Assembly: GCA_020724525.1 (NCBI GenBank)
Contig: DYGU01000004.1
Location: forward strand, 35,100 to 99,099
Origin: Dehalococcoides mccartyi
Lineage (GTDB): Bacteria > Chloroflexota > Dehalococcoidia > GIF9 > DYGU01
Direction of reading: 5' to 3'
DNA: 64,000 bases
In this document: positions 8,187 through 54,616 of the stretch, piece by piece
Numbering within the stretch: position 1 is the first letter of the stretch
Layout: the number at the start of each line of letters is the position of its first letter
Notes under the pieces: generated by a model
Databases searched by the model: none
Told to the model about the DNA's origin: nothing
The model's input: the letters and a program-made list of their open reading frames with translations, nothing else
Translations under genes and position numbers: made by a program

Positions 8187-8400
8187 AATATTTTACTCAA
8201 CCCTTGCCTTATGTCAAAAACCCCCTTGACAACCATTATTAGCCTCGGTGTTAAACTTTAAAATTGTTTAGACCAGCTTCCCAGCTCATTATTCTCTTCC
8301 AATTATTTTTCGTCTAAATATGGGTAAACAATGTTTCTTCATCGGTTTGGGTAATTTCTGGTATCGGTAGTATAGTTTTGGCAAGGGAAGGAAAGCAAAT

Positions 8401-9756: not shown

Positions 9757-9926
9757 TAATTAAACTTTTGAAAAATTTTGGAAAGGCTGTGGATAGCCCT
9801 TTTATTTGATTTTGGATTCTCTCCTTAATAAGAATTGCTTCCTAAATGTCATTAATAATATTATTAGTTAAATTATTAGTACTTTAGTTATTATAAAACT
9901 ATAAAAATAATAAGTTTTGAGCGATA
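9757..9926. promoter_or_regulatory. Candidate oriC segment: one DnaA-box-like site plus an AT-rich repeat tract that could be a DNA-unwinding element.
   Basis: TGTGGATAG at 9789-9797 matches the DnaA box TGTGGATAA at 8 of 9 positions. 9840-9926 is very AT-rich, with repeated ATTATTAGT-like units. Flanking gene orientation switches here (minus-strand genes upstream of dnaA, plus-strand from dnaA). Confidence 0.35.
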
Positions 9927-38431: not shown

Positions 38432-39310
38432 ATGGTTATTATCGGTGAGAGTATTCATATTATTTCCAAGGTGGTCAGTGATGCTATTAAGGAGAGAAAT
38501 CCAAAGCCAATTCAGGAATTAGCTATCGCTCAAAATAGAGCTGGTGCTGACTATATAGACTTGAACTTGGGTCCAGTCCGCCGAGACCCAGAAGAAACAA
38601 TGCAGTGGCTGGTTAATGCTGTTCAGGAAGTTGTCGTTTTGCCTTTGTCATTAGATACTATGAACCCGATAGCTATGGAAGCCGGGCTTAAAATCTGTAA
38701 CAAACGCCCCTTGCTTAACTCAGCTTCAGGAAAAACAGATAGCAAGGAACAGATGCTTCCTTTAGCCAAAAAATATTCCTGTGATGTGGTTATCTCAGTA
38801 ATCACGGACAGAGGCTGTCCCCCCGGTGTTGATGCCAGAGTTGAGAGTATTATGGAAACGGTGGCGCTGGCTAATGAGATGGGTATTCCCAACGAAGATA
38901 TCTGGGTTGACCCAATTCTGTTGCCGGTTAGTGCCAGCCAGGCTGAGGTTAAGGAAACTCTGGAATTTGTGAAAATATTGTCTGATCTTCTGCCTGGCAT
39001 TAAGTCAACTATAGGGTTGTCTAATATATCCAACGGCACACCTGAAGCCCTCCGGGGTATTCTTAACCGAACTTATATGGTGATGTTAGGCAGATATGGA
39101 CAATATTCAGTGATTGCTGATGCCTTAGACAAGGAGCTTATCAGCCTGAAGAGGGGGGAGATGCCTAACATCGTTGACCTTATTTACCGGACTATGGATG
39201 GGGAGGATATAGACCTTTCGTCCCTGTCGCCAAAAGAGCGGGACTATGTCAAAACAACCAAAGTGCTTACGGGGGAAATATTGTATTCCCACGCCTGGCT
39301 GGAAAGTTGA
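38432..39310 (+). CDS. acsE: Methyltetrahydrofolate:corrinoid/iron-sulfur protein methyltransferase (pterin-binding, AcsE-like).
   Basis: Aligns by eye with AcsE throughout: IIGESIH...DYIDLNLGP...LSLDTMNP...LLNSASG...WVDPILLP...IGLSNISNG. Confidence 0.8.
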   Translation: MVIIGESIHIISKVVSDAIKERNPKPIQELAIAQNRAGADYIDLNLGPVRRDPEETMQWLVNAVQEVVVLPLSLDTMNPIAMEAGLKICNKRPLLNSASGKTDSKEQMLPLAKKYSCDVVISVITDRGCPPGVDARVESIMETVALANEMGIPNEDIWVDPILLPVSASQAEVKETLEFVKILSDLLPGIKSTIGLSNISNGTPEALRGILNRTYMVMLGRYGQYSVIADALDKELISLKRGEMPNIVDLIYRTMDGEDIDLSSLSPKERDYVKTTKVLTGEILYSHAWLES

Positions 39311-39331
39311 TATTTTGATAAAGGAATAAAA

Positions 39332-40237
39332 ATGGAATATAGAGCACCCATTGAAACCTATGCGGGTAAGGTCCGAGAGGTGGTAATTGGTAAGGGGAGT
39401 AAAGCTATGAAGATTGGGGGGGAAAGTATTCTCCCTCTTCATTTTTTTGAGGGCTCTATTGAGAACCCCCCTCGACTTGTTTTAGAGGTCTATGATATGG
39501 AGCCAGACGATTGGGCAGGGGCAGTGCTTGAGCCTTATAAAGATGTTGTTTCCGACCCGGTAAAATGGGCACAGAAATGTTTAGATTTTGGTGCTGACCT
39601 TGTCTGCCTTAAGCTAATGAGTACTGACCCGGGCGGGGAAAATGCACCGGCAGAGGCAGTAGCAGCCCTTACCAAAAAAGTAGCCACCACCATTAACACC
39701 CCCCTCATTGTTTATGGCTCGGGGGATGAGACCAAAGACATTGAGGTGTTAACTAAGGTGGCTGAAGTCTGCGCTGGAGAAAACCTCCTCTTAGGTCCAG
39801 CGGTTAAGGAAAATTATGAGCCGATATGCAAAGCCGCTTTGGACTATGGGCATTGTCTTATTGCCCAGACCCCCATAGATATAAACTTGGAAAAGGAACT
39901 AAATATAAAACTGATGAAGTCCTTTCCACCGGAGAGAATAGTTATTGACCCCTTAAGCTCGGCTTTAGGCTATGGTATTGAATACAGCTTCAGCATAATG
40001 GAAAGGACCAAACACATTGGCATTATGTTTAAGGATGCCACCATGCAGATGCCTATAATCGCCGACCTGGGTAAGGAATCGTGGAAAACCAAAGAAGCTA
40101 AAGCCAGTGAAAAGCAGGGTATATTATGGGAAAGCATTGCGGCTTTAACTTTTCTTTTAGCCGGGGCTAATATTTTGGTCTTGCGTCACCCCGAAACCCT
40201 TAAGTTAATTAAGGAAGTAATTACGGGGAAAATTTGA
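39332..40237 (+). CDS. acsD: Corrinoid/iron-sulfur protein small subunit (AcsD / CdhD-like TIM barrel).
   Basis: 301 aa, adjacent to acsE. A degenerate partial copy of its 3' end recurs at 45682-45817. Confidence 0.75.
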   Translation: MEYRAPIETYAGKVREVVIGKGSKAMKIGGESILPLHFFEGSIENPPRLVLEVYDMEPDDWAGAVLEPYKDVVSDPVKWAQKCLDFGADLVCLKLMSTDPGGENAPAEAVAALTKKVATTINTPLIVYGSGDETKDIEVLTKVAEVCAGENLLLGPAVKENYEPICKAALDYGHCLIAQTPIDINLEKELNIKLMKSFPPERIVIDPLSSALGYGIEYSFSIMERTKHIGIMFKDATMQMPIIADLGKESWKTKEAKASEKQGILWESIAALTFLLAGANILVLRHPETLKLIKEVITGKI

Positions 40238-40319: not shown

Positions 40320-40796
40320 ATGGAAGACCACCTATCAGAGATTTTGCCATCCTATAGAGGAAAGAGAAGCAAACTGATTCCGATTCTACAAGAGGTTCAG
40401 GCAAAATTTGGCTACCTGCCCGAGGAGGTGATGCGTGAGCTTGCCACGTTTATCGGCATACCGGAGTGTGAGGCATATAGTGTAGCTACTTTTTATGCTC
40501 AATTCCGGCTCATGCCCCTTGGTAAGAAACGGGTTGCGATCTGCCGAGGCACTGCGTGTCACATCAGCGGTGCCCCCAAAATTCTCGAGGCGACAGAGAA
40601 GGTACTCGGCATAAAGGATGGGGAAACCACAGCTGACCTGGAATATACCCTGGAAACTGTTGCCTGTATTGGTTGCTGTGCGCTAGCCCCTTGTCTAAGG
40701 ATTAACGAGGATGTCCATGGTCGGCTGACGCCGGCAAAGGCAAGCGAACTTTTCCCCGCCCCAAGTACAAATAAAGGAGAGCAAGATGTCCAATAG
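40320..40796 (+). CDS. NuoE/HymA-like [2Fe-2S] thioredoxin-fold subunit.
   Basis: 158 aa with the Cys pattern CRGTACH...CIGCCALAP. Overlaps the next gene by 11 nt. Confidence 0.85.
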   Translation: MEDHLSEILPSYRGKRSKLIPILQEVQAKFGYLPEEVMRELATFIGIPECEAYSVATFYAQFRLMPLGKKRVAICRGTACHISGAPKILEATEKVLGIKDGETTADLEYTLETVACIGCCALAPCLRINEDVHGRLTPAKASELFPAPSTNKGEQDVQ

Positions 40797-42603
40797 GCAA
40801 TGCACTGTTTTAGTTTGCCAGGGGACAGGCTGTATTTCAGGGGGGGCCGAACCAATTTACTCTTCACTGGAAGGAGAGATAGCCAAGCCCGATCTGAGGG
40901 AAAACGTTCATCTCAAGCGTACTGGCTGTCATGGCTTTTGCCAACAAGGTCCTCTTGTCATTGTTGAGCCGGAAGGCTTTTTTTATTCAAAAGTTAAACC
41001 AGATGATGTACACGAAATTGTTCAATCACTTTTACCGGAAAGAAAGGTTGTAAAACGCCTCTTATACCGCGACCCTATTACCAATAAGCGTATACCTTAT
41101 TATCGTGATATCCCTTTCTATAGTAAACAACAACGCACGGTGCTTAGAAATTGTGGCAAAATCAACCCCGAGGATATTAATGACTATCTTGCTTCGAATG
41201 GCTATCAGGCGCTGCGGAAGGCTCTTTTTGAGCTCACCTCGGAGCAAATTATTGAGGAGGTGAAACACTCCGGACTTCGGGGACTGGGGGGAGCGGGCTT
41301 CCCTGCTGGACAGAAGTGGGAAGCCTGCCGTAGAGCGCCTGGTGAGGTAAAGTATGTGATCTGCAACGCTGATGAAGGTGACCCCGGGGCATTTCAGGAC
41401 CGCTCAGTTTTAGAGGGAGACCCTCATTCAGTTTTGGAGGGGATGATAATCGCTGGGTATGCTGTTGGTGCAAAACAGGGCTTTGTCTACGTGCGTGCCG
41501 AATATCCACTGGCGGTGAAGCGCCTTTACATTGCCACCGCCCAAGCGAGGGAAAGGGGATTTCTGGGCCGGAATATTTTGGGGAGCGGATTTGTTTTTGA
41601 TATAGAGATCTTCCAGGGAGCCGGAGCCTTCGTTTGTGGCGAGTCTACAGCGCTAGTCCTTTCCATTGAAGGCAAAAGGGGGATGCCGAAGTCTCTCCCT
41701 CGTCCCAGAACTACCGAGGTAGGGTTATGGGGTAAGCCAACTTTGCTTAATAATGTAAAGACCTTCGCCAATATCCCTCTGATTATTATTCATGGTTCAG
41801 AGTGGTTTGCCTCCAGAGGCACTGAGCGGAGTAAAGGCACGGCTATTTACTCACTGACGGGCAAGGTGGCAAACTGCGGTCTGATAGAAGTGCCTATGGG
41901 AATTAAGCTTCGAGAAATTGTCTATGGTATTGGAGGAGGACCTCCGGGAGGGAAGGCTTTCAAGGCGGTCCAAACCGGCGGACCCTCAGGTGGTTGTCTT
42001 CCGGCAGAGCTTTTGGATATGCCGATCGATTTTGACTCACTTACTGCCGCCGGCTCGATGATGGGCTCGGGAGGCGTAGTGGTGGTGGATGAAGATACCT
42101 GCATGGTTGATGTAGCCCGCTATTTTCTTGACTTCACCCAAAAAGAATCCTGCGGTCAATGTTTGCCATGTAGACTCGGCACGTACCAGATGCTTCAAAT
42201 ATTGGAAAGGATTACAAGGGGGGAGGGGGTACCCGGCGACATAGAGAGACTTGAGTGGATTGGACGGAGGGTCAAGGAGTATTCTCTTTGTGGACTTGGA
42301 ACGACTGCGCCAAATCCTGTGCTTAGTACTATTAAATATTTTCGTGAGGAATATGAAGAGCATATTTATAATAAATACTGCCGGGCAAAGGTCTGCGCCT
42401 TAGGCATGTTCCGGATTGAACCGGATGAATGTGTTCTCTGTGGCCTTTGCCAAGGGGTATGTGAAACTGGGGCGGTAAAGGAAATCAGGAATAAGTTTTT
42501 TATAGTCCAGGATTACTGCAACAAATGCAAGTCCTGCTATACTATCTGTCCTGTTGGGGCAGTAAGGGTGGAGAAATACTTACCTAAAGAGGTGACAAAG
42601 TGA
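40786..42603 (+). CDS. NuoF/HymB-like flavoprotein: N-terminal [2Fe-2S] domain, FMN/NAD(P)H domains, an N3-type [4Fe-4S], and two C-terminal ferredoxin motifs.
   Basis: GGAGFPAGQKWE and CNADEGDPGAF (FMN/NADH site); ESCGQCLPCRLGT-x39-C; C-terminal CVLCGLCQGVCETGAV and CNKCKSCYTICPVGAV. Confidence 0.85.
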   Translation: MSNRQCTVLVCQGTGCISGGAEPIYSSLEGEIAKPDLRENVHLKRTGCHGFCQQGPLVIVEPEGFFYSKVKPDDVHEIVQSLLPERKVVKRLLYRDPITNKRIPYYRDIPFYSKQQRTVLRNCGKINPEDINDYLASNGYQALRKALFELTSEQIIEEVKHSGLRGLGGAGFPAGQKWEACRRAPGEVKYVICNADEGDPGAFQDRSVLEGDPHSVLEGMIIAGYAVGAKQGFVYVRAEYPLAVKRLYIATAQARERGFLGRNILGSGFVFDIEIFQGAGAFVCGESTALVLSIEGKRGMPKSLPRPRTTEVGLWGKPTLLNNVKTFANIPLIIIHGSEWFASRGTERSKGTAIYSLTGKVANCGLIEVPMGIKLREIVYGIGGGPPGGKAFKAVQTGGPSGGCLPAELLDMPIDFDSLTAAGSMMGSGGVVVVDEDTCMVDVARYFLDFTQKESCGQCLPCRLGTYQMLQILERITRGEGVPGDIERLEWIGRRVKEYSLCGLGTTAPNPVLSTIKYFREEYEEHIYNKYCRAKVCALGMFRIEPDECVLCGLCQGVCETGAVKEIRNKFFIVQDYCNKCKSCYTICPVGAVRVEKYLPKEVTK

Positions 42604-43445
42604 TAAGGATGGAGGATGTAAAGGCAAAGGCAGAGGAGAGAAGGTGTCCACTGCAGAAAGCAATTGTCTTCATAGAGGAGTTTTTAAATGAACCACTGTG
42701 TGGAGAATGTCTTCCGTGCACACTTGGGAGTCAGGAACTTAAGATAAGGTTACAGAAGATTGCCGACGGTAAAGGAACTCAATTAGATATCGATGCTATA
42801 GATAAAATTACCGGACATATGCTTGAGATATCAAGATGTAGGAAAGGTATGGATACAGCGAGATTCATAATAGACTCTACAAAGGAAGGCTCATTTAAAG
42901 GACATCTTGAGGGGGTGTGTAATGAAAAAGAATGCCTGTCACTTATTATGTACCGGATTATACCTGAGAAGTGCGTAATGTGCGGCACTTGTCAAGATAT
43001 TTGTAAAGAGAATGCAATAATCGGGGAAAAGAAAAAGCCTTTAAGCTACCAGCCTATTCAGATAAATGCCAGGAAATGCAGAAGTGAAAGGGGTTGTAAT
43101 GAGTGCGTAAGAGTATGTCCTACAGGAGCAATAGAGGTGATAGAGGTAGAAGGTAGGTACTTGCCTTTTGAGATAAGTCAGAAGAGATGTACAAGATGTG
43201 ATGAATGTATAAAGGTGTGTCCTGTTTCAGGAGCAATAGGGGTAATAGAGATAGCTGGTTTAAGGGTAGTACCAATTGACTGGTTAGATATTTCAAAAGC
43301 AATAGGGGTAGCAGATATAGGCTTCCGACCTTTTGAGATAGTTCAGAAGAGATGCACCACCAAATGTGGTGAGTGTATAAAGGGATGTCCCTCAGGAGCA
43401 ATAGAGGTGGTAGATATAAAAGAGCAAGTAGCAGTTGGCAGTTAG
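42600..43445 (+). CDS. Polyferredoxin with an N-terminal NuoF-C-terminal-like [4Fe-4S] module and tandemly repeated [4Fe-4S] motifs.
   Basis: CGECLPCTLGS-x39-C reproduces the NuoF N3 cluster spacing. It is followed by CVMCGTCQDICKENA and a series of CxRCDECIKVCP / CTTKCGECIKGCP units. The 3' third contains an about 130 bp tandem DNA duplication (43140-43400). AT-rich, with AGA/ATA-biased codon usage. Confidence 0.7.
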   Translation: MIRMEDVKAKAEERRCPLQKAIVFIEEFLNEPLCGECLPCTLGSQELKIRLQKIADGKGTQLDIDAIDKITGHMLEISRCRKGMDTARFIIDSTKEGSFKGHLEGVCNEKECLSLIMYRIIPEKCVMCGTCQDICKENAIIGEKKKPLSYQPIQINARKCRSERGCNECVRVCPTGAIEVIEVEGRYLPFEISQKRCTRCDECIKVCPVSGAIGVIEIAGLRVVPIDWLDISKAIGVADIGFRPFEIVQKRCTTKCGECIKGCPSGAIEVVDIKEQVAVGS

Positions 43446-43468
43446 AACAAAAAGGATAAGGAGAGAAA

Positions 43469-45511
43469 ATGGCAGATTTGGTAACAGTAAAGATAGACGG
43501 CCGGCAAGTTAGTGTCCCGCCAGGGACTAATCTGATTGATGCCGCTGAGATAGCTGGCATTCATATACCAAACCTTTGTTATCTTAAGGGTATGAGGGGA
43601 GTAGGCGCATGCCGGCTCTGCCTTGTTGAGGTGGCGGGGGCAGAAAGGCTAATGGTAGCCTGCATGACAAGGGTTAGGGAAGGGATGAGTGTAATTACAA
43701 ATTCAGAGCGCGTGCTCGACGGCCGAAGATTTGTGATTGACATTATTATTTCTATGCATCCTCTTGATTGTATGACATGCACAAAGAGCGGTGTCTGCAA
43801 ACTCCAAAAATACGCTTATGATTTTGGGTTGAAGGAGTCGAGCTTTACCAGGAAGAGATTTGACTACCCAACTGATGAGGCAAATCCATTCATAAAGCGT
43901 GACCCTGATTACTGTATACTCTGTGGACGCTGTGTGCGAATGTGTAAGGCACAGGGCACCAGTGTGCTTGACTTTATGAGAAGGGGTATTAGTACAAAGG
44001 TTACTACAACCCGAGACAGACCACTTCACGAGTCAGGATGCACATTTTGTGGCAGCTGTGTTGATGTCTGTCCTACCAATGCCTTTGTCGAAGCCGGCAG
44101 ATGGGGAAAGGGTAGGGAGTGGGAATATGAGGATATAAGTTCTGTATGCCTTTACTGTGGTAACAGCTGTGATATAAATGTGAGCCGAAAAGACAACGAG
44201 ATCATAAAGATTAGTAGTAATGCCCCTGAGGACTCGGTTGAACACTATTTATGCGCTATCGGCAGATTTGGTTTTGACTATATCCACTCTCATACCAAGG
44301 TGATGTCTCCTATGAAAAGAGTAGATGGTAAACTTCAGGCGACAACATGGGAAGAGGCACTTGATATTGTTGCCGCTAAACTCAAAGATGCCGGCATGGA
44401 TGCCGGATTTGTCAGCACGGCAGACATCCTTAATGAAGATGCTTTAGTGTTAAGGAGATTTGCTAAGGATGTTGTTAAGACAAAAAACTTTGATACAACT
44501 GTAAGCCTTTATGCCGAAGCTGACTCTATGAGGCTTTCGGGTGTGGCTAATATGGATAAAGCAGACCTTATAGTAGTTGTTGGACTTAACCCATCTCAGT
44601 GGGAGAGGGTTCTTCCTGCCCTTGATGCCTCAATAAGAAAAAAGCTTGACAGGGGTGCAAAACTTATTGTCATAAATTCGGCTGAGACACGGCTTTCATC
44701 TGTAGCCGATATAACCCTCAGGGGAGAGGAGGTATCTAATCTCAAGGCAATTGTAAAGGCATTGATAGACAGGGGTTTTAAGGCTGACAAAGAAATAGAG
44801 GATGCCGTTTCAGGGGCAAAAATTTCCGAAGATATTGAAAATGCTGCAAAATTATATGCTGAGTCAAAGAGCCCATTAATCCTGGTAGCGCCATCCCTTT
44901 ATAATGCCTCAGCCAATATTGGACTTCTTAGTTCCTCCTCCCCACTCACTACCTCGTTGGTTGCAGTTCCAGCAGAGAGCAATGCCAGAGGTGTTGTTCT
45001 TATGGGGCTGACGACAAAAAACAAAACATACAGAGATATGATTTCAGGTGATATAAAGTTGCTATATGTACTCGGTGAGATACCTTTAGCGGAAAGACCA
45101 AATGTTGATTTCCTTATAGCACAGAGTTCACACTTTACCGAACTTTCAAAGCAAGCTGATATAGTCCTTCCAGCGTCAGCTGCCCTTGAGGCAGAGGGCA
45201 GTATTGTGGACTATCTTGGCAGACTGAAATATCTACGTAAAGCAGTTGCGCCGGCAGGCGAGGCTAAATTACATCGGGAGATATTTATGGAGCTTTCCAA
45301 GATAATGGGTTGTCCAATCGAGGTACCAAAAGAGACAGAGATTAAAGAGTCTTTAAGGATAGAGGTAAAACCCTCATTTAGTCCCTTTAAGAAAAAAGAG
45401 GGACTTGATTTTGGCTTTTACGAGATGATTGAACTAATAAATGCCTCAGTGATTGGTAGTTCAAGGTTATTGTGGCTTAAAGAGGCTAAGATACTTCAAA
45501 AGGTCAAATGA
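43469..45511 (+). CDS. NuoG / formate-dehydrogenase-alpha-like Fe-S subunit (680 aa). It lacks a full molybdopterin C-terminal domain.
   Basis: N-terminal plant-type [2Fe-2S] (CYLKGMRGVGACRLCLV...C), a His-ligated cluster HPLDCMTCTKSGVC, CILCGRCVRMC, CTFCGSCVDVCP, then a MopB-type CLYCGNSCD and a truncated molybdopterin-oxidoreductase-like region. Same AT-rich, AGA/ATA codon bias as the preceding gene. Confidence 0.7.
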   Translation: MADLVTVKIDGRQVSVPPGTNLIDAAEIAGIHIPNLCYLKGMRGVGACRLCLVEVAGAERLMVACMTRVREGMSVITNSERVLDGRRFVIDIIISMHPLDCMTCTKSGVCKLQKYAYDFGLKESSFTRKRFDYPTDEANPFIKRDPDYCILCGRCVRMCKAQGTSVLDFMRRGISTKVTTTRDRPLHESGCTFCGSCVDVCPTNAFVEAGRWGKGREWEYEDISSVCLYCGNSCDINVSRKDNEIIKISSNAPEDSVEHYLCAIGRFGFDYIHSHTKVMSPMKRVDGKLQATTWEEALDIVAAKLKDAGMDAGFVSTADILNEDALVLRRFAKDVVKTKNFDTTVSLYAEADSMRLSGVANMDKADLIVVVGLNPSQWERVLPALDASIRKKLDRGAKLIVINSAETRLSSVADITLRGEEVSNLKAIVKALIDRGFKADKEIEDAVSGAKISEDIENAAKLYAESKSPLILVAPSLYNASANIGLLSSSSPLTTSLVAVPAESNARGVVLMGLTTKNKTYRDMISGDIKLLYVLGEIPLAERPNVDFLIAQSSHFTELSKQADIVLPASAALEAEGSIVDYLGRLKYLRKAVAPAGEAKLHREIFMELSKIMGCPIEVPKETEIKESLRIEVKPSFSPFKKKEGLDFGFYEMIELINASVIGSSRLLWLKEAKILQKVK

Positions 45512-45681
45512 TACTGGTGGGGTTCCTAATAGGAGTATCCAACAGGATGCCACAAGAGTTTAGGTGGATTCTTATTGATGATGCTATCCAGGTATGGTCA
45601 ATTGGCTTGGATGGGGAGAGAAGCTTAAATAAGGGATAAATGCTTAGTATTGTTGACCTTGTCAAAGATAGCATGACACAC

Positions 45682-45854: not shown

Positions 45855-48182
45855 ATGCCAGAGGAGGTATATAACGTGGTAGTAATAGTTAAGAAAAAGA
45901 CAAGGAAAGACGAGAAACTGGAAATTATACGAGCCGAGGACTTATGGGAACCAGTAGGCCCGACGCCAATGCCGGACCTTGCTGATTTGAGAAACTGGGA
46001 CATGAGACTGCTCAAAACCTATAAGCCTTTTTATGCCCCCTTCTGCGACTTATGCTGCTTTTGTACCTATGGCAAATGCGACCTTACTGGTGAACAAGGG
46101 GGTGCCTGTGGCATTGATATGCCCACTCAGCAAGGAAGGATAGTTCTTCTGGCTTGCTGTGGGGGGGTTGCGGCTCATGGTGCTCATGGCAGGCATATTA
46201 TTGACTATTTGATTGAGAAATATGGAGAAGATTATAAAATTGACCTGGGAACACAGGTAGCTGTAGAAGCACCAATAATCAGGACTGTTCTTGGTCTTAA
46301 ACCAGAGACTCTGGGAGATTTAAAGAAAGCTATAGAGTATGTGGAACGAGGGCTCATTCATCTTGTTTCCTCACTACACACCGGTCAGGAGGGGAGTGAT
46401 TTAGATTACGAATCAAAAGCTCTCCACGCCGGGATGCTTGACCATGTCGCCCTGGAGGTTACTGATATTGCCCAGATTGTCGGCTTCAGCTTTCCCACAT
46501 CTATTGCTGATACTCCTTTGGTGGATTTCGGTTGGGGAGTAGTAGACAAAACTAAGCCGGTAATTTTATGTATTGGGCATAATCCAGCTACAGCCACTTC
46601 CATTATTGATTACTTGAACCAGAACAATTTGCAAGATGAAGTTGAGGTCTGTGGAATATGTTGCACTGCCCTTGAGGTAACCAGATATTCAAAAGCAGCC
46701 AAAGTTATCGGTCCTCTATCCCGGCAGCTTTTCTTTGTGAGGAGCGGTGTGGCTGATGTCATTGTTACTGAGGAACAGTGTATAAGAGCTGATACTTCCC
46801 TTGAAGCCAAGAAGGCAGGTTCGGCTCTAATTGCTGCCTCGGACAAAGCTTGTTACGGACTTGATAATGTCACTGAAAAGGAAGCCGATGAGATTGTTAA
46901 GGAGATGGTGGAGGTAGGAAAGCAAGTATTGATACTTGTCCCGGAGAAGGCAGCTGAGGTGGCGGTAAAGGTAGCTATAAAAATTGCTCGACAAAGGGAA
47001 AAAGAACTTATTGAGGCATCTCAGGTTCCTGAACTTGTCCAGGAATGTCATAATTGCCGTATTTGTGACCGGAACTGCCCTAACCTTTTGCCTGTAGGTG
47101 AAGCGGTGGAGCAAGCTGGTAAAGGCAACTTGGAAAAGTTAATTGAGGTGTTTAATAAGTGCCTTGGCTGTGGCAAGTGTGAGCAAGACTGCCCTCGTAA
47201 TATTCCTATTTTAAAGCTGATGCAGGCGGTTGCCAGCGGGGAAACTTTTAAGCTCAGGAGCGGGCGTGGACCCATCCATGATGTGGAAATAAGAAAGGTT
47301 GGCGCCCCTATTGTCTTAGGGACTATACCTGGAGTTGTTGCCTTTGTTGGTTGCTCTAACTTCCCTGAGGAAATAGATGAAGTGGCTGAGATGATGGAGG
47401 AGTTTGCCCGGAGGAAGTATATTGTAGTAGCTTCAGGCTGCGCTGCCATGGCGGCGGCGACGAAGAAAGATGCCGAAGGAAAAACTATTTATGAGAAGTA
47501 CCCCCCCGATTTCGATGCTGGCGGTGTTTTGAATGTGGGCTCCTGTGTGGCTAATTCTCATATTGCAGGAGCGGCTATAAAAATAGCCAACATTTTTGCC
47601 GCTCTGCCATTGAGAGCTAATTACGAGGTCATTGCTGACTATATTCTTAACCGGGTTGGGGCTTGTGGGGTTGCCTGGGGGGCTTATTCCTGGAAAGCAG
47701 CGGCAATTGCCACCGGCTGTAATAGATGGGGAATTCCAGTAGTTGTTGGTCCTCACTCTTCCAAATACCGGAGGCTCTATCTCAGTCGGAAAGAGGAAGA
47801 TGACTGGACAGTGATGGATGGCAGGACAAGGCAGTTAGTGGATACTCAGGAGCCATCTCCAGAGCATTTAATCAATGTAGTTGAGTCTAAAGAACGAGCT
47901 ATAGTCACTATAGCCAAGCTATGCATCCGGAAAAATGATACCCCTCAGGGGAGGCAGATAAAGCTTAACCATTACATTGCTCTTCATAAGCAATATCTGG
48001 GAACTCTACCCGATGATCTTCACCTCTTTATCCGACGAACTACTGACATTCCCATTTTCTTCAAAAAGGAGGTTATGGAATATCTCCAAAAAGTTGGCTG
48101 GAAAGAAAAGCCAGTATTGACTTTACCAACTCTGATCGGGACTTACCCTTCTAAGGTGCCTCTGGAGGCTGTTATCCATTAA
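45855..48182 (+). CDS. cdhA: CO dehydrogenase catalytic subunit, archaeal CdhA type (ACDS alpha).
   Basis: N-terminus GPTPMPDLADLRNWDMRLLKTYKPFYAPFCDLCCFCTYGKCDLTGEQGGACGIDM...AAHGAHGRHIIDYLIEKYGED closely follows archaeal CdhA. Mid-protein has two ferredoxin-type motifs (CHNCRICDRNCP, CLGCGKCEQDCP) characteristic of CdhA. Confidence 0.85.
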   Translation: MPEEVYNVVVIVKKKTRKDEKLEIIRAEDLWEPVGPTPMPDLADLRNWDMRLLKTYKPFYAPFCDLCCFCTYGKCDLTGEQGGACGIDMPTQQGRIVLLACCGGVAAHGAHGRHIIDYLIEKYGEDYKIDLGTQVAVEAPIIRTVLGLKPETLGDLKKAIEYVERGLIHLVSSLHTGQEGSDLDYESKALHAGMLDHVALEVTDIAQIVGFSFPTSIADTPLVDFGWGVVDKTKPVILCIGHNPATATSIIDYLNQNNLQDEVEVCGICCTALEVTRYSKAAKVIGPLSRQLFFVRSGVADVIVTEEQCIRADTSLEAKKAGSALIAASDKACYGLDNVTEKEADEIVKEMVEVGKQVLILVPEKAAEVAVKVAIKIARQREKELIEASQVPELVQECHNCRICDRNCPNLLPVGEAVEQAGKGNLEKLIEVFNKCLGCGKCEQDCPRNIPILKLMQAVASGETFKLRSGRGPIHDVEIRKVGAPIVLGTIPGVVAFVGCSNFPEEIDEVAEMMEEFARRKYIVVASGCAAMAAATKKDAEGKTIYEKYPPDFDAGGVLNVGSCVANSHIAGAAIKIANIFAALPLRANYEVIADYILNRVGACGVAWGAYSWKAAAIATGCNRWGIPVVVGPHSSKYRRLYLSRKEEDDWTVMDGRTRQLVDTQEPSPEHLINVVESKERAIVTIAKLCIRKNDTPQGRQIKLNHYIALHKQYLGTLPDDLHLFIRRTTDIPIFFKKEVMEYLQKVGWKEKPVLTLPTLIGTYPSKVPLEAVIH

Positions 48183-48199
48183 AAGGAGGTTTAAGTAAT

Positions 48200-48745
48200 A
48201 TGAGTATACCTTATCACTATGTCAATGTCCCTACTGGATTTAAGACCGCTCGCATTATAGAAGATGCCAGTGAATATGCCCACTTAATCAAAAGAGCCAG
48301 AAGACCCTTATTGCTCTTAGGACCGCTGACACTGAGGATATCCCTTAATGGCAGGCTACTTATGGAGTATGGTGTGGATATAGCTAAAGCAGCTAACATC
48401 CCGGTATGTGCCACTGCCCATACTAAGAAGAAATTGCTCGAACTAGGAGTAACTCCAGAAAGCACCTATGACATAATAGAAATCATTAATCATCTCAAGG
48501 ATAAGGAATGGCGAGGAGTTAAAAAAGAAGGTAATCACGACCTGGTGATGTTCCTGGGTTTCAGGACTGATTTAGGCCAGCAGGGACTGTCAACACTGAA
48601 GCATTTTGCTCCCCACCTCAGGACTATGACTTTATGTAAGTATTATTATCCCAATGCTGCTTACTCTCTTCCTAATCTAAAAGATGATAAATGGGGAGAA
48701 TTTCTGGAAAATCTAATAGCAAATCTAAAGGAAAAGGGGGTATAA
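48200..48745 (+). CDS. cdhB: ACDS epsilon subunit (CdhB).
   Basis: 181 aa. ARRPLLLLG and AANIPVCATA segments match CdhB (AKRPLLMVG, AANIPIAATG). It lies immediately after cdhA. Confidence 0.7.
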   Translation: MSIPYHYVNVPTGFKTARIIEDASEYAHLIKRARRPLLLLGPLTLRISLNGRLLMEYGVDIAKAANIPVCATAHTKKKLLELGVTPESTYDIIEIINHLKDKEWRGVKKEGNHDLVMFLGFRTDLGQQGLSTLKHFAPHLRTMTLCKYYYPNAAYSLPNLKDDKWGEFLENLIANLKEKGV

Positions 48746-48748
48746 AAA

Positions 48749-49975
48749 ATGGCAGGAATGTTTCCAGTAGATGTTGGACCCCAGTATGAAGGGGAAGCCA
48801 TCAGAAAAGCTGATTTTTATGTAGAGTTCGGTGGACCTGATGTAAAAAGTAAATTTGAACTGGTAACCCTAAAGACCATGAATGAGGTAGAGCATGAAAA
48901 GATTGAGGTAGTTGGACCGGATATACCGGAACTGACGGAGGGAGGCAGCTATCCTTTAGGCATTCTTATTGATGTTGCCGGTTCTGAGATAGAAAAAGAA
49001 ATGGAGCCTGTTTTTGAAAGAAGGATACATCTTTATGCTAACTATATCGAAGGCTTCTGGCACATGGCGCAGAGGAATGATATTTGGATGAGATTACATA
49101 AAAACTCCTATAAAAAGGGGCTCAACTCCTTAAAGGAAATTGGTAAAATCCTTATTTTCCTTTATACCTCTGAGATACCTATTATTGAGAAAATTAGCAC
49201 CACCTTCATTACTGATGAAAAGAAAGTGGAGGAGTTTTTGCCTAAGGCTCTGGAGGTCTATAAAGCCAGGGATGAGCGGCTTAAGGGTATAAGAGAAGAG
49301 GATGTGGAGGAATTTTATAGCTGTTCCTTGTGTCAGAGTTTTGCCCCGACTCATATTTGTATTGCTACTCCAGAGAGAGTTGCCAATTGTGGAGCTATAA
49401 ACTGGTTTGATGGCAGAGCTGCCTATAAGCTTGACCCTGAGGGTCCGGTACAAGAAGTGAAAAAGGGTGAGTGCTTAGACCCGATACGGGGTGAGTATAG
49501 CGGCTGTAACGAACTGGCTGTGGTCAAGTCCTTGAGGTCTTATGACCGGGTTTACCTCCATAGTGCCTTTGAACATCCCCATACTTCCTGTGGTTGCTTT
49601 CAGGCTATCTGCTTTTATATTCCGGAAGCGGATGCCTTTGGCATTGTTCATCGGGACTTTGTTGGCAATACGGTAATGGATGTCCCCTTCTCTACTATGG
49701 CTGGTCAAACGAGTGGCGGCAGACAGGTGGAGGGCTCTTTAGGCATAGCGCTGGAGTATTTACGGTCACCAAAATTCCTCCAAGCTGATGGCGGTTTATA
49801 CCGTGTAGTTTGGATGCCAAAGGAAATAAAGGAAAGATATAAAGAGGCTACTCCCCAGGACTTGTATGATAAGATAGCTACTGAAGAGGATGTCACTAAT
49901 GCTGACGAGCTTGTGGACTTTCTTAAGCGGGTTGGGCATCCATGGGTGAAGGGTGAAGTGGAACTTCCTGTCTAA
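48749..49975 (+). CDS. cdhC: Acetyl-CoA synthase, short archaeal-type CdhC/AcsB (A-cluster subunit).
   Basis: 408 aa with the A-cluster ligands CSLCQSF...C and a SCGCF Ni-binding motif (HTSCGCFQAICFY). Confidence 0.85.
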   Translation: MAGMFPVDVGPQYEGEAIRKADFYVEFGGPDVKSKFELVTLKTMNEVEHEKIEVVGPDIPELTEGGSYPLGILIDVAGSEIEKEMEPVFERRIHLYANYIEGFWHMAQRNDIWMRLHKNSYKKGLNSLKEIGKILIFLYTSEIPIIEKISTTFITDEKKVEEFLPKALEVYKARDERLKGIREEDVEEFYSCSLCQSFAPTHICIATPERVANCGAINWFDGRAAYKLDPEGPVQEVKKGECLDPIRGEYSGCNELAVVKSLRSYDRVYLHSAFEHPHTSCGCFQAICFYIPEADAFGIVHRDFVGNTVMDVPFSTMAGQTSGGRQVEGSLGIALEYLRSPKFLQADGGLYRVVWMPKEIKERYKEATPQDLYDKIATEEDVTNADELVDFLKRVGHPWVKGEVELPV

Positions 49976-49997
49976 AGACTAAATTAGGAGGTTTGTC

Positions 49998-51365
49998 ATG
50001 CCACTTAAAGGGACTGATATTGTCAAAAAGCTTCCTGAATCGGGCAAAAAGAACTGTAAGGAATGTGGTTTCCCTACCTGCTTTGCCTTTGCTATGAAGT
50101 TAGCCTCAGGGGGGACTACTGTGGACAAGTGTCCCTATCTTTCCCCAGAGGTCAAGGCTGAATTAGAAGATGCCTTAGCTCCTCCGATACGGTTGGTTAC
50201 CATTGGTCGTGGTGAAAATAGCCTTCAGATTGGTAATGAAGAAGTAATTTACAGGCATGAGAAGACCTTTATCCATAAACCTGGCATTGCCTTTCTTATT
50301 TCTGACATAGAGAGCGAGGCTAAGGTTGAGGAAAAGGTGGAGAAGCTTAGGGGACTCCAGTTTCCGCGGGTAGGGCTAACCCTTAAAGCTGACCTGCTGG
50401 CTTTAAGGAATGAATCAGGGGAAAAATCTAAGTTTGAAGCTTTAGTAAGGAGAGTTTACCAGAATACTGATGCTCCCCTTATATTAATTTCTGAGGATAC
50501 AGATGCCCTGTTTTTGGCTCGGGACATATGTGCCGATAGGTCACCCCTTGTTTATCCCATAACTAAAGAAAATATCGATGAGGCAATTCCGAAAATAAAG
50601 GAGAAGCCAACTCCGGTGGGAGTGCGGGGACAAAATATTGAAGACCTTATTTTCCTTACCACTAAATTGAAAGACGCCGGAATTGGAGATATAGTTTTAG
50701 ACCCTGGCTCCAGATGCTTTCAGCAAGCTATAGCTGATCAGACTCTAATTCGCCGCGCCGCTTTAAAGCAGAATTTTAGACCTTTGGGCTATCCTACTAT
50801 TGGCTTTCCTTGTTTCATGGCTAAAGATAACTTGAGGGAGTTCCTTGTTGCGGCTATGTTTATTATTAAATACGCTGGGATTATTGTCCTTTCCGATACC
50901 GACAAGGAATCGTTACTGCCCCTATTAGTCCAAAGACTTAGTATCTACACTGACCCCCGGATACCTATGTCTGTTGAAGACAAAGTATATGAAATCCTCG
51001 AAGCTACTGAAGAATCGCCTGTACTCCTGACTGCTAATTGGGCATTGACCTATTTTATCGTTTCCGGGGAAATTGAAGGTAGTAAGGTTTCGTCTTGGCT
51101 GTGCGTTAAGAATACGGAAGGGCTGGGGGTGCTTACTGCCTGGGCAGCCGGTAAGTTTTCCGGTGATACTATAGGTCCCTTTATCAGGAAATGTGGCATT
51201 GAAGGTAAGGTGAAACATCGCCGGCTAATTATTCCGGGGAAAGTAGCCCGGATTAAAGGCGAGCTGGAAGAGGCATTGCCTGGCTGGGAAATTATTGTTG
51301 GACCTCGGGAAGCCGCTGAAATCCCAGCCTTTTTGCCAACCCTTGTGCGGCAGTGGCAGAACTAA
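49998..51365 (+). CDS. acsC: Corrinoid/iron-sulfur protein large subunit (AcsC / CdhE).
   Basis: N-terminal [4Fe-4S] motif CKECGFPTCFAFAMKLASGGTTVDKCPY, followed by TIM-barrel and B12-binding regions. Confidence 0.85.
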   Translation: MPLKGTDIVKKLPESGKKNCKECGFPTCFAFAMKLASGGTTVDKCPYLSPEVKAELEDALAPPIRLVTIGRGENSLQIGNEEVIYRHEKTFIHKPGIAFLISDIESEAKVEEKVEKLRGLQFPRVGLTLKADLLALRNESGEKSKFEALVRRVYQNTDAPLILISEDTDALFLARDICADRSPLVYPITKENIDEAIPKIKEKPTPVGVRGQNIEDLIFLTTKLKDAGIGDIVLDPGSRCFQQAIADQTLIRRAALKQNFRPLGYPTIGFPCFMAKDNLREFLVAAMFIIKYAGIIVLSDTDKESLLPLLVQRLSIYTDPRIPMSVEDKVYEILEATEESPVLLTANWALTYFIVSGEIEGSKVSSWLCVKNTEGLGVLTAWAAGKFSGDTIGPFIRKCGIEGKVKHRRLIIPGKVARIKGELEEALPGWEIIVGPREAAEIPAFLPTLVRQWQN

Positions 51366-51835
51366 AAGAGCGTCTTCAGAGGCTCCTAACTGAAGAAAAA
51401 AGGGACAAACGACACTTAATTTCCCTCCTTCAGGAAATTCAACAGGAGTTTAGTTATCTTCCTCGGGAAGTGATGTTGGAAATTGCCTGGTTCCTGGGAG
51501 TATCTCCGAGCACTGTTTATAGTGTAACTACTTTCTTTAATCAATTCCGCTTTACCCCGGTGGGAAAGCATCCCATAAGAATCTGTCTGGGAACAGCTTG
51601 TCATCTGGCTGGGGGTAAGTTAGTCCTGGAAACTGTGGAAAGGGAGCTTGATATTAAAGTTGGTGGTGTAACTGCTGATGGTCAATTTGGTTTGGAGAGG
51701 GTGGCTTGCATTGGCTGCTGTGCTCTGGCTCCGGTAATGACCATTAATGGTGACGTTTACTCCAGGCTGACTCCGCTAAAGATGGAAGAGGTGTTGACTT
51801 TGCTTAAGTCTGGTGGTGAGTCTGAAAGAAAGTGA
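51353..51835 (+). CDS. NuoE-like [2Fe-2S] subunit (second copy).
   Basis: 160 aa with CLGTACH...CIGCCALAP. Host-like codon usage. Overlaps acsC by 13 nt. Confidence 0.85.
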   Translation: MAELKERLQRLLTEEKRDKRHLISLLQEIQQEFSYLPREVMLEIAWFLGVSPSTVYSVTTFFNQFRFTPVGKHPIRICLGTACHLAGGKLVLETVERELDIKVGGVTADGQFGLERVACIGCCALAPVMTINGDVYSRLTPLKMEEVLTLLKSGGESERK

Positions 51836-53721
51836 CCTTCAAAGAAATTCAGAAACTGGCAAGAGCTGAGTGGGACTCTCTCTATTATGGGGAAATTCCT
51901 CTTATCCTTGTGGGTACTGCGACCTGCGGTCGGGCTGCTGGCGCCTTGGCTGTGGTTGAGGCTTTTGAAAAAGAAATAGTCCGGCGGAAGGCTGCTGCCA
52001 GAGTTATCCAGGTTGGCTGTATGGGGCTTTGTTATACTGAACCCCTGGTCACTATAATCAAACCTAAATCCTTTCGGGTTTGCTACAAAAATATTACCCC
52101 GGACTTGGTACCTCGGCTTGTAGAAGGCTATATTTTGGGTGATGACCCTTGTTTGGAGCTTGCTTTGGGCACCTTAGCCGGGGGTAATGGTGAAGCTATC
52201 TCCATTCCTGAACTGTCTCGGTTTGAAAAGGAGCCTCGCCTCATTATGCGCCGCTGCGGCTATATTAACCCTGAAGATATAAAACACTATGTTGCCAGCG
52301 GTGGGTATAGTAGCTTGGTTCGGGCTTTACAAATGCCCGCCCGGGAAATAATTAGTCAGCTAAAAAGGTCGGGGTTAAGAGGGATGGGCGGCGCCGGTTT
52401 CCCCACCGGAGAAAAATGGGAACTTTGTCAAAAAGCTAAAGGTAAGCCTAAATATGTGATATGCAATGCTGATGAAGGTGACCCCGGCGCTTTTATGGAC
52501 CGGGTTGTCCTGGAAAGTGACCCCCACCAGGTTTTAGAAGGCATGATTATCGCCGGTTATGCTTTGGGTAGTTCTCAAGGCTATATTTATATTCGAGCCG
52601 AATACCCTTTAGCTATTAAGCGTTTGAAGATTGCCCTTGACCAGGCTCAAGAATATGGTTTTTTAGGTAAAAACATATTAGGCACTGTTTTTAGTTTTTA
52701 CATAGAATTAGAATCAGGAGCTGGGGCTTTTGTCTCTGGTGAGGCGACGGCGCTGATGCGTGCCATCGAAGGCAAGCGGAGCATACCGAGGGCAAGACCA
52801 CCACATTCGGTAGAGGCTGGCTTGTGGGGGAAGCCAACTTTACTTAATAATGTAAAAACTTTTGTTTTTGTTCCTCTCATAATAGCCCGCGGCGCTGACT
52901 GGTTTTCTACTATAGGCACCGAAAGAAGTAAGGGGACAGCCATTTTCGCTTTAGCTGGTAAGATAACCAATACCGGCTTAGTTGAAGTGCCTATGGGAAC
53001 GACTTTGCGTGAGCTAATTTTTGATATTGGTGGTGGTATTCGGCAGGGTAAGCTTTTCAAAGGAATACAAATTGGAGGTCCCTCAGGAGGTTGCTTGCCG
53101 GCGAGTCTCCTGGAAACTCCCGTTGACTTTGATTCTTTGTCTAAAGCCGGAGCCATGATGGGTTCCGGTGGGCTAATTGTCATGGATGAGGACAATTGTA
53201 TGGTAGATACGGCTCGCTTCTTCCTTGATTTTACCCAGAAAGAGTCCTGTGGCAAATGCACCACCTGCCGTATAGGTACTAAACAAATGCTGGATGTATT
53301 GGAAGATATTGTTGCCGGAAGAGGCAAAATAGAAGATATGGATTTGCTTGTTGAGTTGGGTGAAGATATCAGGGATGGCTCCCTTTGTGGCTTAGGCAGA
53401 ACGGCTTCCAACCCGGTGCTGACTACTATCCGCTATTTTCATGATGAATATGAGGCTCATATTCTCGAAAAACGCTGCCCGGCTCTGGTTTGTAAAGAGC
53501 TTATTGCCTATTATATTATTCCGGAAAAATGTGAGAAAGGCTGTGAACATTGTGTTCTCAATTGCCCGGTAAAAGCCATTTCCAGCGATGAAAGGAGACT
53601 GAAAATTATTGACCAGACGAAGTGTACTAAATGTGGCACTTGCCTGGAGGTATGTCCCGCTGAGTATAATGCTGTGGTAAAATTATCACCTCCTACTTTA
53701 GTGCCAATGAAGGAGGGTTAA
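51832..53721 (+). CDS. NuoF-like flavoprotein (second copy), with N-terminal thioredoxin-like domain and C-terminal ferredoxin motifs.
   Basis: GGAGFPTGEKWE, CNADEGDPGAF, ESCGKCTTCRIGT-x39-C, C-terminal CEKGCEHCVLNCP and CTKCGTCLEVCP. About 65% identical by eye to the 40786 copy across the core. Confidence 0.85.
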   Translation: MTFKEIQKLARAEWDSLYYGEIPLILVGTATCGRAAGALAVVEAFEKEIVRRKAAARVIQVGCMGLCYTEPLVTIIKPKSFRVCYKNITPDLVPRLVEGYILGDDPCLELALGTLAGGNGEAISIPELSRFEKEPRLIMRRCGYINPEDIKHYVASGGYSSLVRALQMPAREIISQLKRSGLRGMGGAGFPTGEKWELCQKAKGKPKYVICNADEGDPGAFMDRVVLESDPHQVLEGMIIAGYALGSSQGYIYIRAEYPLAIKRLKIALDQAQEYGFLGKNILGTVFSFYIELESGAGAFVSGEATALMRAIEGKRSIPRARPPHSVEAGLWGKPTLLNNVKTFVFVPLIIARGADWFSTIGTERSKGTAIFALAGKITNTGLVEVPMGTTLRELIFDIGGGIRQGKLFKGIQIGGPSGGCLPASLLETPVDFDSLSKAGAMMGSGGLIVMDEDNCMVDTARFFLDFTQKESCGKCTTCRIGTKQMLDVLEDIVAGRGKIEDMDLLVELGEDIRDGSLCGLGRTASNPVLTTIRYFHDEYEAHILEKRCPALVCKELIAYYIIPEKCEKGCEHCVLNCPVKAISSDERRLKIIDQTKCTKCGTCLEVCPAEYNAVVKLSPPTLVPMKEG

Positions 53722-53839: not shown

Positions 53840-54616
53840 ATGGGGTTTAGAAGGAGGGTTAAGTTGACTACTGTTGCCGTTGCCGGAAAGGGAGGTGTCG
53901 GTAAAACAGTCATCGCTGCTTTGTTAATAAAGGCTCTTTCGGAAAAGGGTGTGGTTCTGGCGATTGATGCTGACCCCAGTACTAACCTGAATTTAGCTTT
54001 GGGCTTACCTCTAACCGAAACTGTGGGCAGAGTGCGCGAAGACCTGACCGAGGACATTACTAAAGGAAGTTTGCCTACTGGGGTATCCAAGCAAGAACTT
54101 CTGGATATGAAGATAAGGGAAGCTTTGGTCGAGTCAGCCAGAATTGACCTTTTAGCTATGGGACGCCCTGAGGGTCCTGGCTGTTATTGCGCCGCTAATC
54201 ATATGCTCCGTCTCTCCATTGACCAGCTGGCTAAGAGTTATGATTATACAGTCATAGATTGTGAAGCCGGTATGGAACATATTAGCCGACGGACAACCCG
54301 TGATATAGATATTTTGCTTATTATTTCTGACCCCACAATACGGGGTGTGACCGCAGCAGCTCGGATGAAGGAACTTATGAAAGAATTACGCACCAGGACA
54401 GGGAAAATTTATCTAGCAGTGAACCGGGTAAAAGACGGACTCCCTAAAGAAATTGGAGAAGCTATTAATAAGTCCGGGCTTAACCTGATTGCTATCATAC
54501 CTGAAGACCCTAACATTGCTCCTTTGGAAGTAAAAGGAGCCCCTCTCGTTGAACTTCCGCCTGATTCCCCTCTCCAGTCGGGGGTAAGAGAAATAGTTAC
54601 CAAGTTAGGTCTTTGA
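53840..54616 (+). CDS. cooC: CooC/AcsF-type Ni-insertion ATPase (MinD family). A TTG start at 53864 is possible.
   Basis: P-loop VAVAGKGGVGKT and a CooC-like CxC motif (GPGCYCAANHM). Confidence 0.8.
   Translation: MGFRRRVKLTTVAVAGKGGVGKTVIAALLIKALSEKGVVLAIDADPSTNLNLALGLPLTETVGRVREDLTEDITKGSLPTGVSKQELLDMKIREALVESARIDLLAMGRPEGPGCYCAANHMLRLSIDQLAKSYDYTVIDCEAGMEHISRRTTRDIDILLIISDPTIRGVTAAARMKELMKELRTRTGKIYLAVNRVKDGLPKEIGEAINKSGLNLIAIIPEDPNIAPLEVKGAPLVELPPDSPLQSGVREIVTKLGL

Follow-up and report, generated by a model that had tools for sequence, protein, structure and literature searches.

A 64,000-nucleotide stretch of contig DYGU01000004.1 (assembly GCA_020724525.1, labelled Dehalococcoides mccartyi; positions 35,100 to 99,099 of the forward strand), here called the window, carries a gene, here called X, for an iron-sulfur protein of 281 amino acids (aa). 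Judged by sequence and predicted structure, X is a long-form member of a conserved, unnamed family of free-standing proteins that copy the C-terminal module of BfuB, the flavoprotein of the Bfu (HydABC-type) electron-bifurcating enzymes. It lies in the order BfuC, BfuB, X, BfuA within a gene cluster for CO dehydrogenase/acetyl-CoA synthase (CODH/ACS; Wood-Ljungdahl pathway), and we think it probable that X serves as an accessory iron-sulfur subunit of the Bfu-type, NuoE/NuoF/NuoG-like complex encoded there.

A sequence search of the PDB aligned residues 12-178 of X with the last ~160 residues of BfuB-type flavoprotein chains (435-594 of 7T2R_B and 468-627 of 8A6T_B), and the eight best chains were all of the BfuB type (E 1e-18 to 1e-14). 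X was closer to bifurcating BfuB (E 1e-18) than to complex I NuoF, whose match was limited to the N3 domain (E 2e-5), and the matches to the polyferredoxins MvhB and FwdF were restricted to the Fer4 motifs. In the Pfam scan, PF10589 (NADH_4Fe-4S) matched residues 22-93 at 43.0 bits, above the cut-off of 23.5 (E 4.1e-11), while PF01512, the flavin mononucleotide (FMN)/NADH domain, had no match in X and was present in the neighbouring 605-aa protein. The N3 cysteine pattern reads C34-x2-C37-x2-C40, 39 residues, C80. A preliminary description of this DNA, made from its letters, had noted a 281-aa open reading frame (ORF) with the NuoF-type N3 signature (CGECLPC, 39 residues, Cys) and no FMN or NADH domain, and the hidden Markov model matches, PF10589 at the N-terminus and the Fer4 models, bear this out. 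The accompanying reading as a free-standing NuoF N3 domain holds for the N3 module itself and falls short for the rest, as the whole first 178 residues are, on these alignments, a paralogue of the BfuB/HydB C-terminal third that includes its Cys3His hinge.

The structure of X was predicted with AlphaFold2 (AF2) from an alignment of 40 relatives. The model was confident for residues 1-148 and placed helices at 17-30, 39-55, 61-77 and 81-95 in the N3 domain, with a predicted local distance difference test score (pLDDT) above 90 over most of the N3 region and a fall to 66 at residues 31-40. When the model was compared with the PDB by Foldseek, the best matches were all BfuB, HydB, NfnB or StnB chains, the best superpositions comprised ~205 aligned columns at a root-mean-square deviation of 2.1-2.6 Å, and the N3 bundle matched the four-helix bundles of BfuB and NuoF. 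The predicted ligands of the N3-type cluster, C34, C37, C40 and C80, were invariant or nearly so across the same 40 relatives. Neither the PDB sequence search nor Foldseek found a stand-alone version of the module among solved structures.

The correspondence with BfuB includes a second metal site. In the alignment with 7T2R chain B, the X residues C16, H102, C107 and C112 fall on C438, H525, C531 and C536, and all four are invariant or almost so throughout the family. Residues of this type are the ligands of the BfuB hinge ('B2') site and mark bifurcating BfuB, the hinge His being absent from non-bifurcating HydB homologues (PMC9304861). The site is located in the linker joining the four-helix bundle to the ferredoxin-like domain (PMC10021017; PMC12018979), and solved Bfu enzymes have either Zn2+ or a [2Fe-2S] cluster there (PMC9304861; PMC10021017; PMC12018979). 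The fifth hinge ligand of the NiFe enzyme, C476, corresponds to Ala55 in X; this position is variable among the relatives of X and is Thr in most BfuB (PMC9304861). Where the fifth ligand is not Cys, the site binds Zn2+ through three Cys and one His (PMC10021017; PMC12018979). As X has no counterpart of the NiFe enzyme's fifth ligand, its predicted Cys3His site most likely binds structural Zn2+.

Beyond the hinge, Fer4 motifs A and B1 of X align with the C-terminal 2x[4Fe-4S] domain of BfuB, described as the ferredoxin branch of these enzymes (PMC9304861; PMC10021017; PMC12018979), and Fer4 dicluster models also match. Between the two motifs lies a Lys-rich loop, GEKKKP, that aligns with GEKKKP of T. 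kivui HydB. Simulations led to the proposal that the Lys-rich loop Lys570-572 of A. woodii HydB is a ferredoxin docking site (PMC10021017), and by homology the loop of X may be its equivalent. Taken together, the alignments and the model indicate that the whole C-terminal third of BfuB, beyond the N3 domain alone, is copied in X as a separate protein. BfuB/HydB chains (7T2R_B, 8A6T_B, 7Q4V_B, 9BP5_B, 8OH5_B, 9N5U_B) share with X the N3 bundle, the Cys3His hinge, the C-terminal 2x[4Fe-4S] domain and the GEKKKP loop, but they also have N-terminal [2Fe-2S], FMN/NADH Rossmann-like and SLBB domains, all three of which X lacks. X further differs from them in being a separate polypeptide beside a complete BfuB, in its low identity (~23-31%) and, in the long form, in two more Fer4 motifs. 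NuoF/Nqo1/NDUFV1 of complex I has the same CxxCxxC-x39/40-C motif and four-helix bundle but, unlike X, no C-terminal ferredoxin domain.

Gene fission, by which X would be a split-off BfuB tail, was ruled out, as the 605-aa BfuB-like protein upstream has N-terminal [2Fe-2S], FMN and N3 domains and keeps its own complete C-terminal 2x[4Fe-4S] domain. Since that protein is complete, X reads as a second copy of the module and not as part of a split gene. X is only 31% identical to the upstream BfuB over the shared part and 27-31% identical to the BfuB tails in the window, and these comparisons mark it as an additional paralogue, of old date, of the BfuB/HydB C-terminal third.

The genes around X in the window are ordered acsE-like, CdhD-like, BfuC, BfuB, X, BfuA, archaeal-type cdhABCD, a second BfuC/BfuB pair and a CooC-like ATPase. 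The GTG start of X (42600-42602) overlaps the TGA stop of the upstream BfuB-like gene (42601-42603), and a Shine-Dalgarno-like GAGGTG inside the end of the BfuB-like gene suggests translational coupling of X. On the other side, 23 nt separate the stop of X from the start of the BfuA-like gene, which is preceded by AAGGAG. The gene is under purifying selection: the ratio of nonsynonymous to synonymous divergence (dN/dS) between the window gene and its P0003 orthologue was 0.27 over the whole gene and 0.28 over the B2-B3 tail. The public protein collection also holds an entry, P0001, identical to X of the window.

Gene order was compared at the best 80 loci among 269 tblastn matches, one genome being taken per species. 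A ~670-aa NuoG-like gene followed X within 600 nt at 72 of the 80 loci, and a full-length BfuB preceded it at 69. Genes of the acs set (acsE, D, C, B, A) were found at 52 of the 57 loci with at least 7 kb of upstream sequence. Metagenome contigs showed the same gene order around X, ordinary BfuCBA operons in that scan were without X, and the contigs with long forms kept the same order. The preliminary description had likened X to an electron-wire subunit of HydABC/Hnd-type bifurcating complexes. The HydABC-like part of this comparison is retained in the BfuC-BfuB-X-BfuA operon, whereas a hydrogenase subunit was ruled out: no hydrogenase family was found among the scanned window proteins or in the contig gene table ~10 kb either side of X, the BfuA-like protein, NuoG-like in kind, had neither an H-cluster nor a Molydop_binding domain in the Pfam scan, and the neighbours are CODH/ACS genes.

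A search of the protein collection returned 131 relatives of X, nearly all of 195-205 aa and covering ~65% of the query; the ~200-aa relatives were 40-55% identical to X over residues 1-185. Named relatives came from metagenome-assembled genomes of Nitrospirae/Thermodesulfovibrionia and had generic annotation only ('ferredoxin', '4Fe-4S dicluster domain-containing protein' or 'NADH-ubiquinone oxidoreductase-F iron-sulfur binding region domain-containing protein'). All cluster Cys and H102 were invariant or nearly so in the 40 aligned relatives. The family-invariant set, namely C16, PxCGxCxPC, SxCxKGxD, H102, C107, C112, motif A and GEKKKP, is present in X, with SRCRKGMD in the window protein where the family reads SMCKKGKD. 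In a profile search of 1.8 billion representative sequences, 30 representatives were obtained at E <= 1e-30, most of them of <=262 aa, and BfuB C-termini ranked below the stand-alone proteins. A distant stand-alone clade of 171-185 aa (P0137, P0139, P0140, P0141, P0145, P0149, P0154) has the pattern C...CxxCxxC...C...H...C...C and two Fer4 motifs, the His/Cys part being missing from P0154. The best 80 of the 269 tblastn matches were almost all from Nitrospirota, plus one from Brocadiia and one on a contig labelled Woesearchaeota. No NCBIfam family reached its cut-off, the best matches staying far below (e.g. 43.9 versus 251 bits), and no description of the family was found in the open-access literature. 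The detached architecture, taken for unusual in the preliminary description, is the rule in a family of at least 80 species-level genomes (269 tblastn matches).

Within this family the window protein is outside the size norm, having 281 aa and four Fer4 motifs where 195-205 aa and one dicluster domain are usual, and among the relatives found the long form is limited to it and to P0002, P0003 and P0026. The ~200-aa Nitrospirota/Thermodesulfovibrionia proteins have the same invariant residues and the same operon position as X, beside acs genes; they carry one dicluster domain (A, B), whereas the window protein carries A with B1, B2 and B3 and is encoded next to archaeal-type cdh genes.

The four Fer4-type motifs of X start at C125, C160, C197 and C252 (CVMCGTCQDIC-K, CRSERGCNECVRVC-P, CTRCDECIKVC-P and CTTKCGECIKGC-P, respectively), and Pfam Fer4-family models matched strongly, in up to four separate stretches. 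A chain of ferredoxin-type units after the N3 domain had been described before, together with a recent tandem duplication of about 130 bp and two protein repeats about 70% identical. The chain was recovered, and the two quoted peptides were indeed 71% identical in protein (22/31) and 81% in DNA. Similarity among the repeats far exceeds chance, in-frame random 33-mers of the X gene having an average identity of 28% (standard deviation 8%). The duplication itself took another form: Tandem Repeats Finder reported no array on 42400-43600, and a repeat search gave instead three copies of a ~100-nt unit, with start-to-start spacing of 111/105 nt and then 165 nt. Units B2 and B3 are parted by a 69-nt insertion that follows the Cys-Pro of B2 and is absent from the three long-form relatives; its first 11 codons (43227-43259) repeat the next segment, 43293-43322, at 77% identity. 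The window protein alone has also lost 26 aa of the helical linker that joins B1 to B2.

In short-form relatives the C-terminal end consists of motif A (CxxCxxCxxxCK), GEKKKPYLSGY, a single B motif (LPFEIVQKRCTKCGECIKVCP) and a short tail, and the long form, comprising the window protein, P0002 (283 aa), P0003 (282 aa) and the fragment P0026, has A and then B1, B2 and B3. The three close relatives were 53-61% identical to the window protein by BLASTP, and all had three B units. B1 retains the upstream context of the ancestral B motif and B3 the ancestral C-terminal context (...KEQVAVGS), an arrangement that, as far as the alignments go, is the expectation for internal tandem triplication. The units resembled same-numbered units elsewhere most (window B3 was 84% identical to P0002 B3 versus 68% to window B2, and window B2 77% to P0026 B2), and unit-specific flanks, EVEG..YLPFEI before B2 and G[FY]xPFEI before B3, were common to all four long forms. 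Since same-numbered units are most alike and the flanks are shared, the triplication predates the split of the long-form proteins, and on this comparison the triplication of the second Fer4 motif in the window lineage is ancient and shared.

Synonymous divergence (dS) between B2 and B3 was 0.52 within the window gene and 0.45 within the P0003 gene, both rough and noisy values at ~31 codons per unit, and the window value is on a level with the whole-gene dS of 0.58 between the window and P0003 genes. Each B unit is 70-77% identical to the single B motif of 200-aa family members, so the ~70% similarity of B2 and B3 reflects strong conservation of the B motif and not a recent origin. In a codon test, B2 and B3 shared 17 of 22 codons at identical residues versus 8.8 expected from codon usage; codon identity was equally high between non-orthologous units of different organisms (e.g. 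16/19), and the test therefore holds no information on the age of B2 and B3. A metagenome scan for further long forms returned short forms only, at <=53% identity. The recent origin previously assigned to the duplication was thus not upheld, the same duplicated tail recurring in three close relatives, rather than in many genomes, together with its flanks.

The two additional motifs probably fold into a second dicluster domain, which would bring the long form to five [4Fe-4S] sites in total. In the AF2 model from the 40-sequence alignment, motif A was paired with B2, since MAFFT had placed the family B motif on B2, and B1 and B3 were of low confidence.

On the reading that we favour, X would be made together with BfuB and BfuA through translational coupling and would bind the Bfu-type complex as a fourth subunit. 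Its cofactors would be a single N3-type [4Fe-4S] cluster, two further [4Fe-4S] clusters and a structural Zn2+, with probably two more [4Fe-4S] clusters in the long form, and it could act as an extra low-potential entry or exit arm for electrons, a second ferredoxin-type arm. Through this arm the Bfu core may be connected either with CODH/ACS or with a ferredoxin-like partner bound at the Lys-rich loop. By description, X can be likened to HytD/HytE1/HytE2 of the Clostridium autoethanogenum Hyt-Fdh complex, likewise extra Fe-S-only subunits in a BfuABC-type operon (PMC6085437), to the extra Fe-S subunits proposed for Codh-Bfu (PMC9304861) and to the polyferredoxin subunit of the tungsten aldehyde oxidoreductase-Bfu complex (PMC12318220). 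Such accessory subunits are thought to move electrons between the Bfu core and a third partner (PMC6085437; PMC9304861; PMC12318220). Schut et al. proposed that extra Fe-S subunits pass third-substrate electrons into BfuA, and named CO as a possible third substrate in Firmicutes (PMC9304861).

Several observations weigh against a role of X as an electron-transferring Bfu subunit at CODH/ACS, or against a fully occupied tail. In solved BfuB, the N3-type and C-terminal clusters are beyond direct electron-transfer distance and are bridged by a mobile BfuC domain (PMC10021017), and X may therefore not be one continuous wire. No acs gene was nearby at 5 of the 57 loci with enough flank, and some Nitrospirota loci put X before BfuB or carry several BfuB/X copies. 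In the tail, pLDDT was below 50 for B3 and the tail end with the deep alignment, B2 being confident only through its pairing with motif A, and the mean pLDDT was 33 when the four long forms alone were used. The Cys spacing of B1 (Cx5C) and B3 (Cx3C) is not canonical, and that the two bind clusters is an assumption.

X is small (~200-281 aa), consists solely of Fe-S binding modules and has no membrane or anchoring domain, and accessory polyferredoxins are common near CODH genes (PMC9304861), all of which would also suit a free soluble ferredoxin-like carrier, CooF-like or a dedicated ferredoxin, shuttling between CODH/ACS and the Bfu-type complex. We give such a carrier little probability: X is found strictly beside BfuB and upstream of BfuA, with overlaps or very short gaps typical of stoichiometric subunits, and its Lys-rich loop suggests a protein to which an acidic ferredoxin docks, not a ferredoxin of that kind. 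The N3-type bundle and the hinge site are, moreover, interface elements within BfuB in solved complexes (PMC10021017), and diffusible ferredoxins do not have them.

Docking to a membrane enzyme is a serious rival because BfuA is NuoG-like over its whole length. It matched the NuoG model TIGR01973 over model positions 1-602 of 606 (E 3.6e-101) and also matched complex I 75-kDa subunits, although its score of 340 bits stayed under the cut-off of 470 bits. BfuC-BfuB-X-BfuA could then serve as the input module for NADH/ferredoxin in an 11-subunit complex I-like membrane enzyme whose genes lie elsewhere ('Nuo-Bfu'), with X as an extra N-module subunit and the CODH/ACS link reduced to regulatory co-expression. 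Nuo-Bfu clades in Nitrospirae and Planctomycetes were described by Schut et al. (PMC9304861), and there is a report of Chloroflexi that have an 11-subunit Nuo alongside separate nuoEFG genes (PMC5736913). We nevertheless regard this arrangement as improbable, given that acs genes consistently accompany X (52 of 57 loci) and that the gene tables of the source contig and of three relatives list no nuo membrane-subunit gene, the larger synteny screens having had no such queries. Decay of a duplicated BfuB, with X as what is left of it and the repeated tail as a functionless product of recent slippage, is very improbable: tandem duplications of BfuB and X do occur at some loci and the window protein has a lineage-specific 23-aa insertion with a partial repeat, but all cluster ligands are conserved over the 40 aligned relatives, dN/dS is low (0.27; tail 0.28), the three-unit tail is common to all long-form relatives, B2/B3 synonymous divergence is ~0.5 and X is merely 27-31% identical to the BfuB tails in the window.

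The preferred assignment of X as an accessory Bfu subunit bears on two questions: Bfu enzymes are a large electron-bifurcating family in which the 'third partner' of many members is unknown, and the low-potential electron supply to CODH/ACS outside classical acetogens is poorly understood. A conserved candidate fourth subunit that copies the ferredoxin-reducing BfuB branch and is encoded in acs operons of at least 80 species-level genomes is a concrete and cheap target. X is also a naturally occurring BfuB C-terminal module on its own, in which the N3-type cluster and the Cys3His site could be studied by spectroscopy free of flavin. The interest rests on the family and its operon, and not on the duplication. 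A more far-reaching idea, which we hold tentatively and consider unlikely, is that BfuC-BfuB-X-BfuA represents a previously unrecognised Bfu class wired directly to CODH/ACS, with X as the physical and electronic link and the five-cluster form adapted to archaeal-type Cdh. If true, Nitrospirota and some Chloroflexota would drive, or draw on, the CO2/CO step with NADH and ferredoxin.

Coordinates of gene X, its motifs and its neighbours in the window.
Feature	Position	Strand	Basis or remark
acsE-like methyltransferase and CdhD-like gene, upstream	38432-40237		Pfam, contig gene table
BfuC/NuoE-like [2Fe-2S] subunit	40320..40796	+	PF01257, E 1.5e-49
BfuB/HydB-like flavoprotein, complete, 605 aa	40786..42603	+	Pfam; E 4.5e-242 to 7T2R chain B over residues 6-593
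Shine-Dalgarno-like GAGGTG, 5 nt before the GTG of X, inside the end of the BfuB-like gene	42589..42594	+	
Gene X, 281-aa iron-sulfur protein	42600..43445	+	ORF; Pfam PF10589 and Fer4 models
Predicted Cys3His hinge metal site: C16 (42645-42647), H102 (42903-42905), C107 (42918-42920), C112 (42933-42935)	span 42645..42935	+	
N3-type [4Fe-4S] four-helix-bundle domain, residues 22-93; predicted ligands C34, C37, C40, C80	42663..42878	+	PF10589
Fer4 motif A, C125-x2-C128-x2-C131-x3-C135, then Lys instead of Pro	42972..43004	+	four Cys invariant in family
Lys-rich loop GEKKKP, residues 142-147	43023..43040	+	G142 and E143 invariant in family
Repeat unit B1, residues 150-184, C160-x5-C166-x2-C169-x3-C173-P; most diverged unit	43047..43151	+	
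Repeat unit B2, residues 187-220, canonical C197-x2-C200-x2-C203-x3-C207-P	43158..43259	+	
23-aa insertion, window protein only, V209-I231, VSGAIGVIEIAGLRVVPIDWLDI; overlaps the end of B2	43224..43292	+	alignment with three long-form relatives
Repeat unit B3, residues 242-273, C252-x3-C256-x2-C259-x3-C263-P	43323..43418	+	
BfuA/NuoG-like Fe-S subunit, 680 aa	43469..45511	+	Pfam; PDB relatives
Archaeal-type CODH/ACS genes cdhA, cdhB, cdhC, cdhD	45855..51365	+	Pfam, contig gene table

Variation was seen in the gene sets around X. Tandem variants occurred at loci L013, L015, L091, L093 and L094, with the orders BfuC-BfuB-X-BfuB'-BfuA, BfuC-X-BfuB-BfuA and BfuC-BfuB-X-BfuB-BfuB-X-BfuA. The BfuB adjoining X fell into two size classes, ~628 aa and ~780 aa; a 779-aa BfuB at positions 7644-9983 of locus L008 had a CBS match (PF00571). 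CBS domains are often nucleotide sensors, and the match hints at regulation. A BfuB apparently without FMN domain upstream of X in CP070788.1 (L006/L059, ~9134-9400) was rejected as evidence for a flavoprotein-free X because the region is a run of N, an assembly or masking gap. X was further present on contigs labelled Woesearchaeota (L024, JACQXV010000028.1, 2.8 kb) and Aenigmarchaeota (P0044). Their gene order is that of the Nitrospirota loci and their X proteins are 49% and 52% identical to the window protein, a similarity about as high as that of the Nitrospirota X proteins, and both contigs are likely mis-binned.

Other ORFs were noted in the window. A 565-aa ORF at 22264-23961 (+) had no Pfam match at E <= 1e-5. 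A Leu-rich ORF of 146 aa at 43120-43560 (- strand) runs antisense to the last part of X and the first part of BfuA; its sequence is the purine-rich Fer4 repeat region in reverse complement, and in all likelihood it does not represent a gene. The source annotation places a 43-aa ORF, with no Pfam match on record, at 45508-45639, between the NuoG-like gene and cdhA. Directly after cdhD, a second NuoE-like/BfuB-like pair (160 and 629 aa; 51353-53721) stands without an adjacent NuoG-like gene, so that the CODH/ACS genes lie between two NADH-module-like sets, and a CooC/CbiA-type ATPase is encoded at 53840-54616.

The Cdh products of the window are of the archaeal type (CdhA of 775 aa with an inserted Fer4 pair, the CdhB epsilon subunit, CdhC of 408 aa and CdhD), and the Nitrospirota loci with short-form X have AcsA/AcsB of the bacterial type. 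Despite its archaeal-type Cdh, the contig is bacterial, carrying RelA, MutL, UvrD and a Mur ligase, and the named close relatives of its RelA are from Chloroflexi/Chloroflexota.

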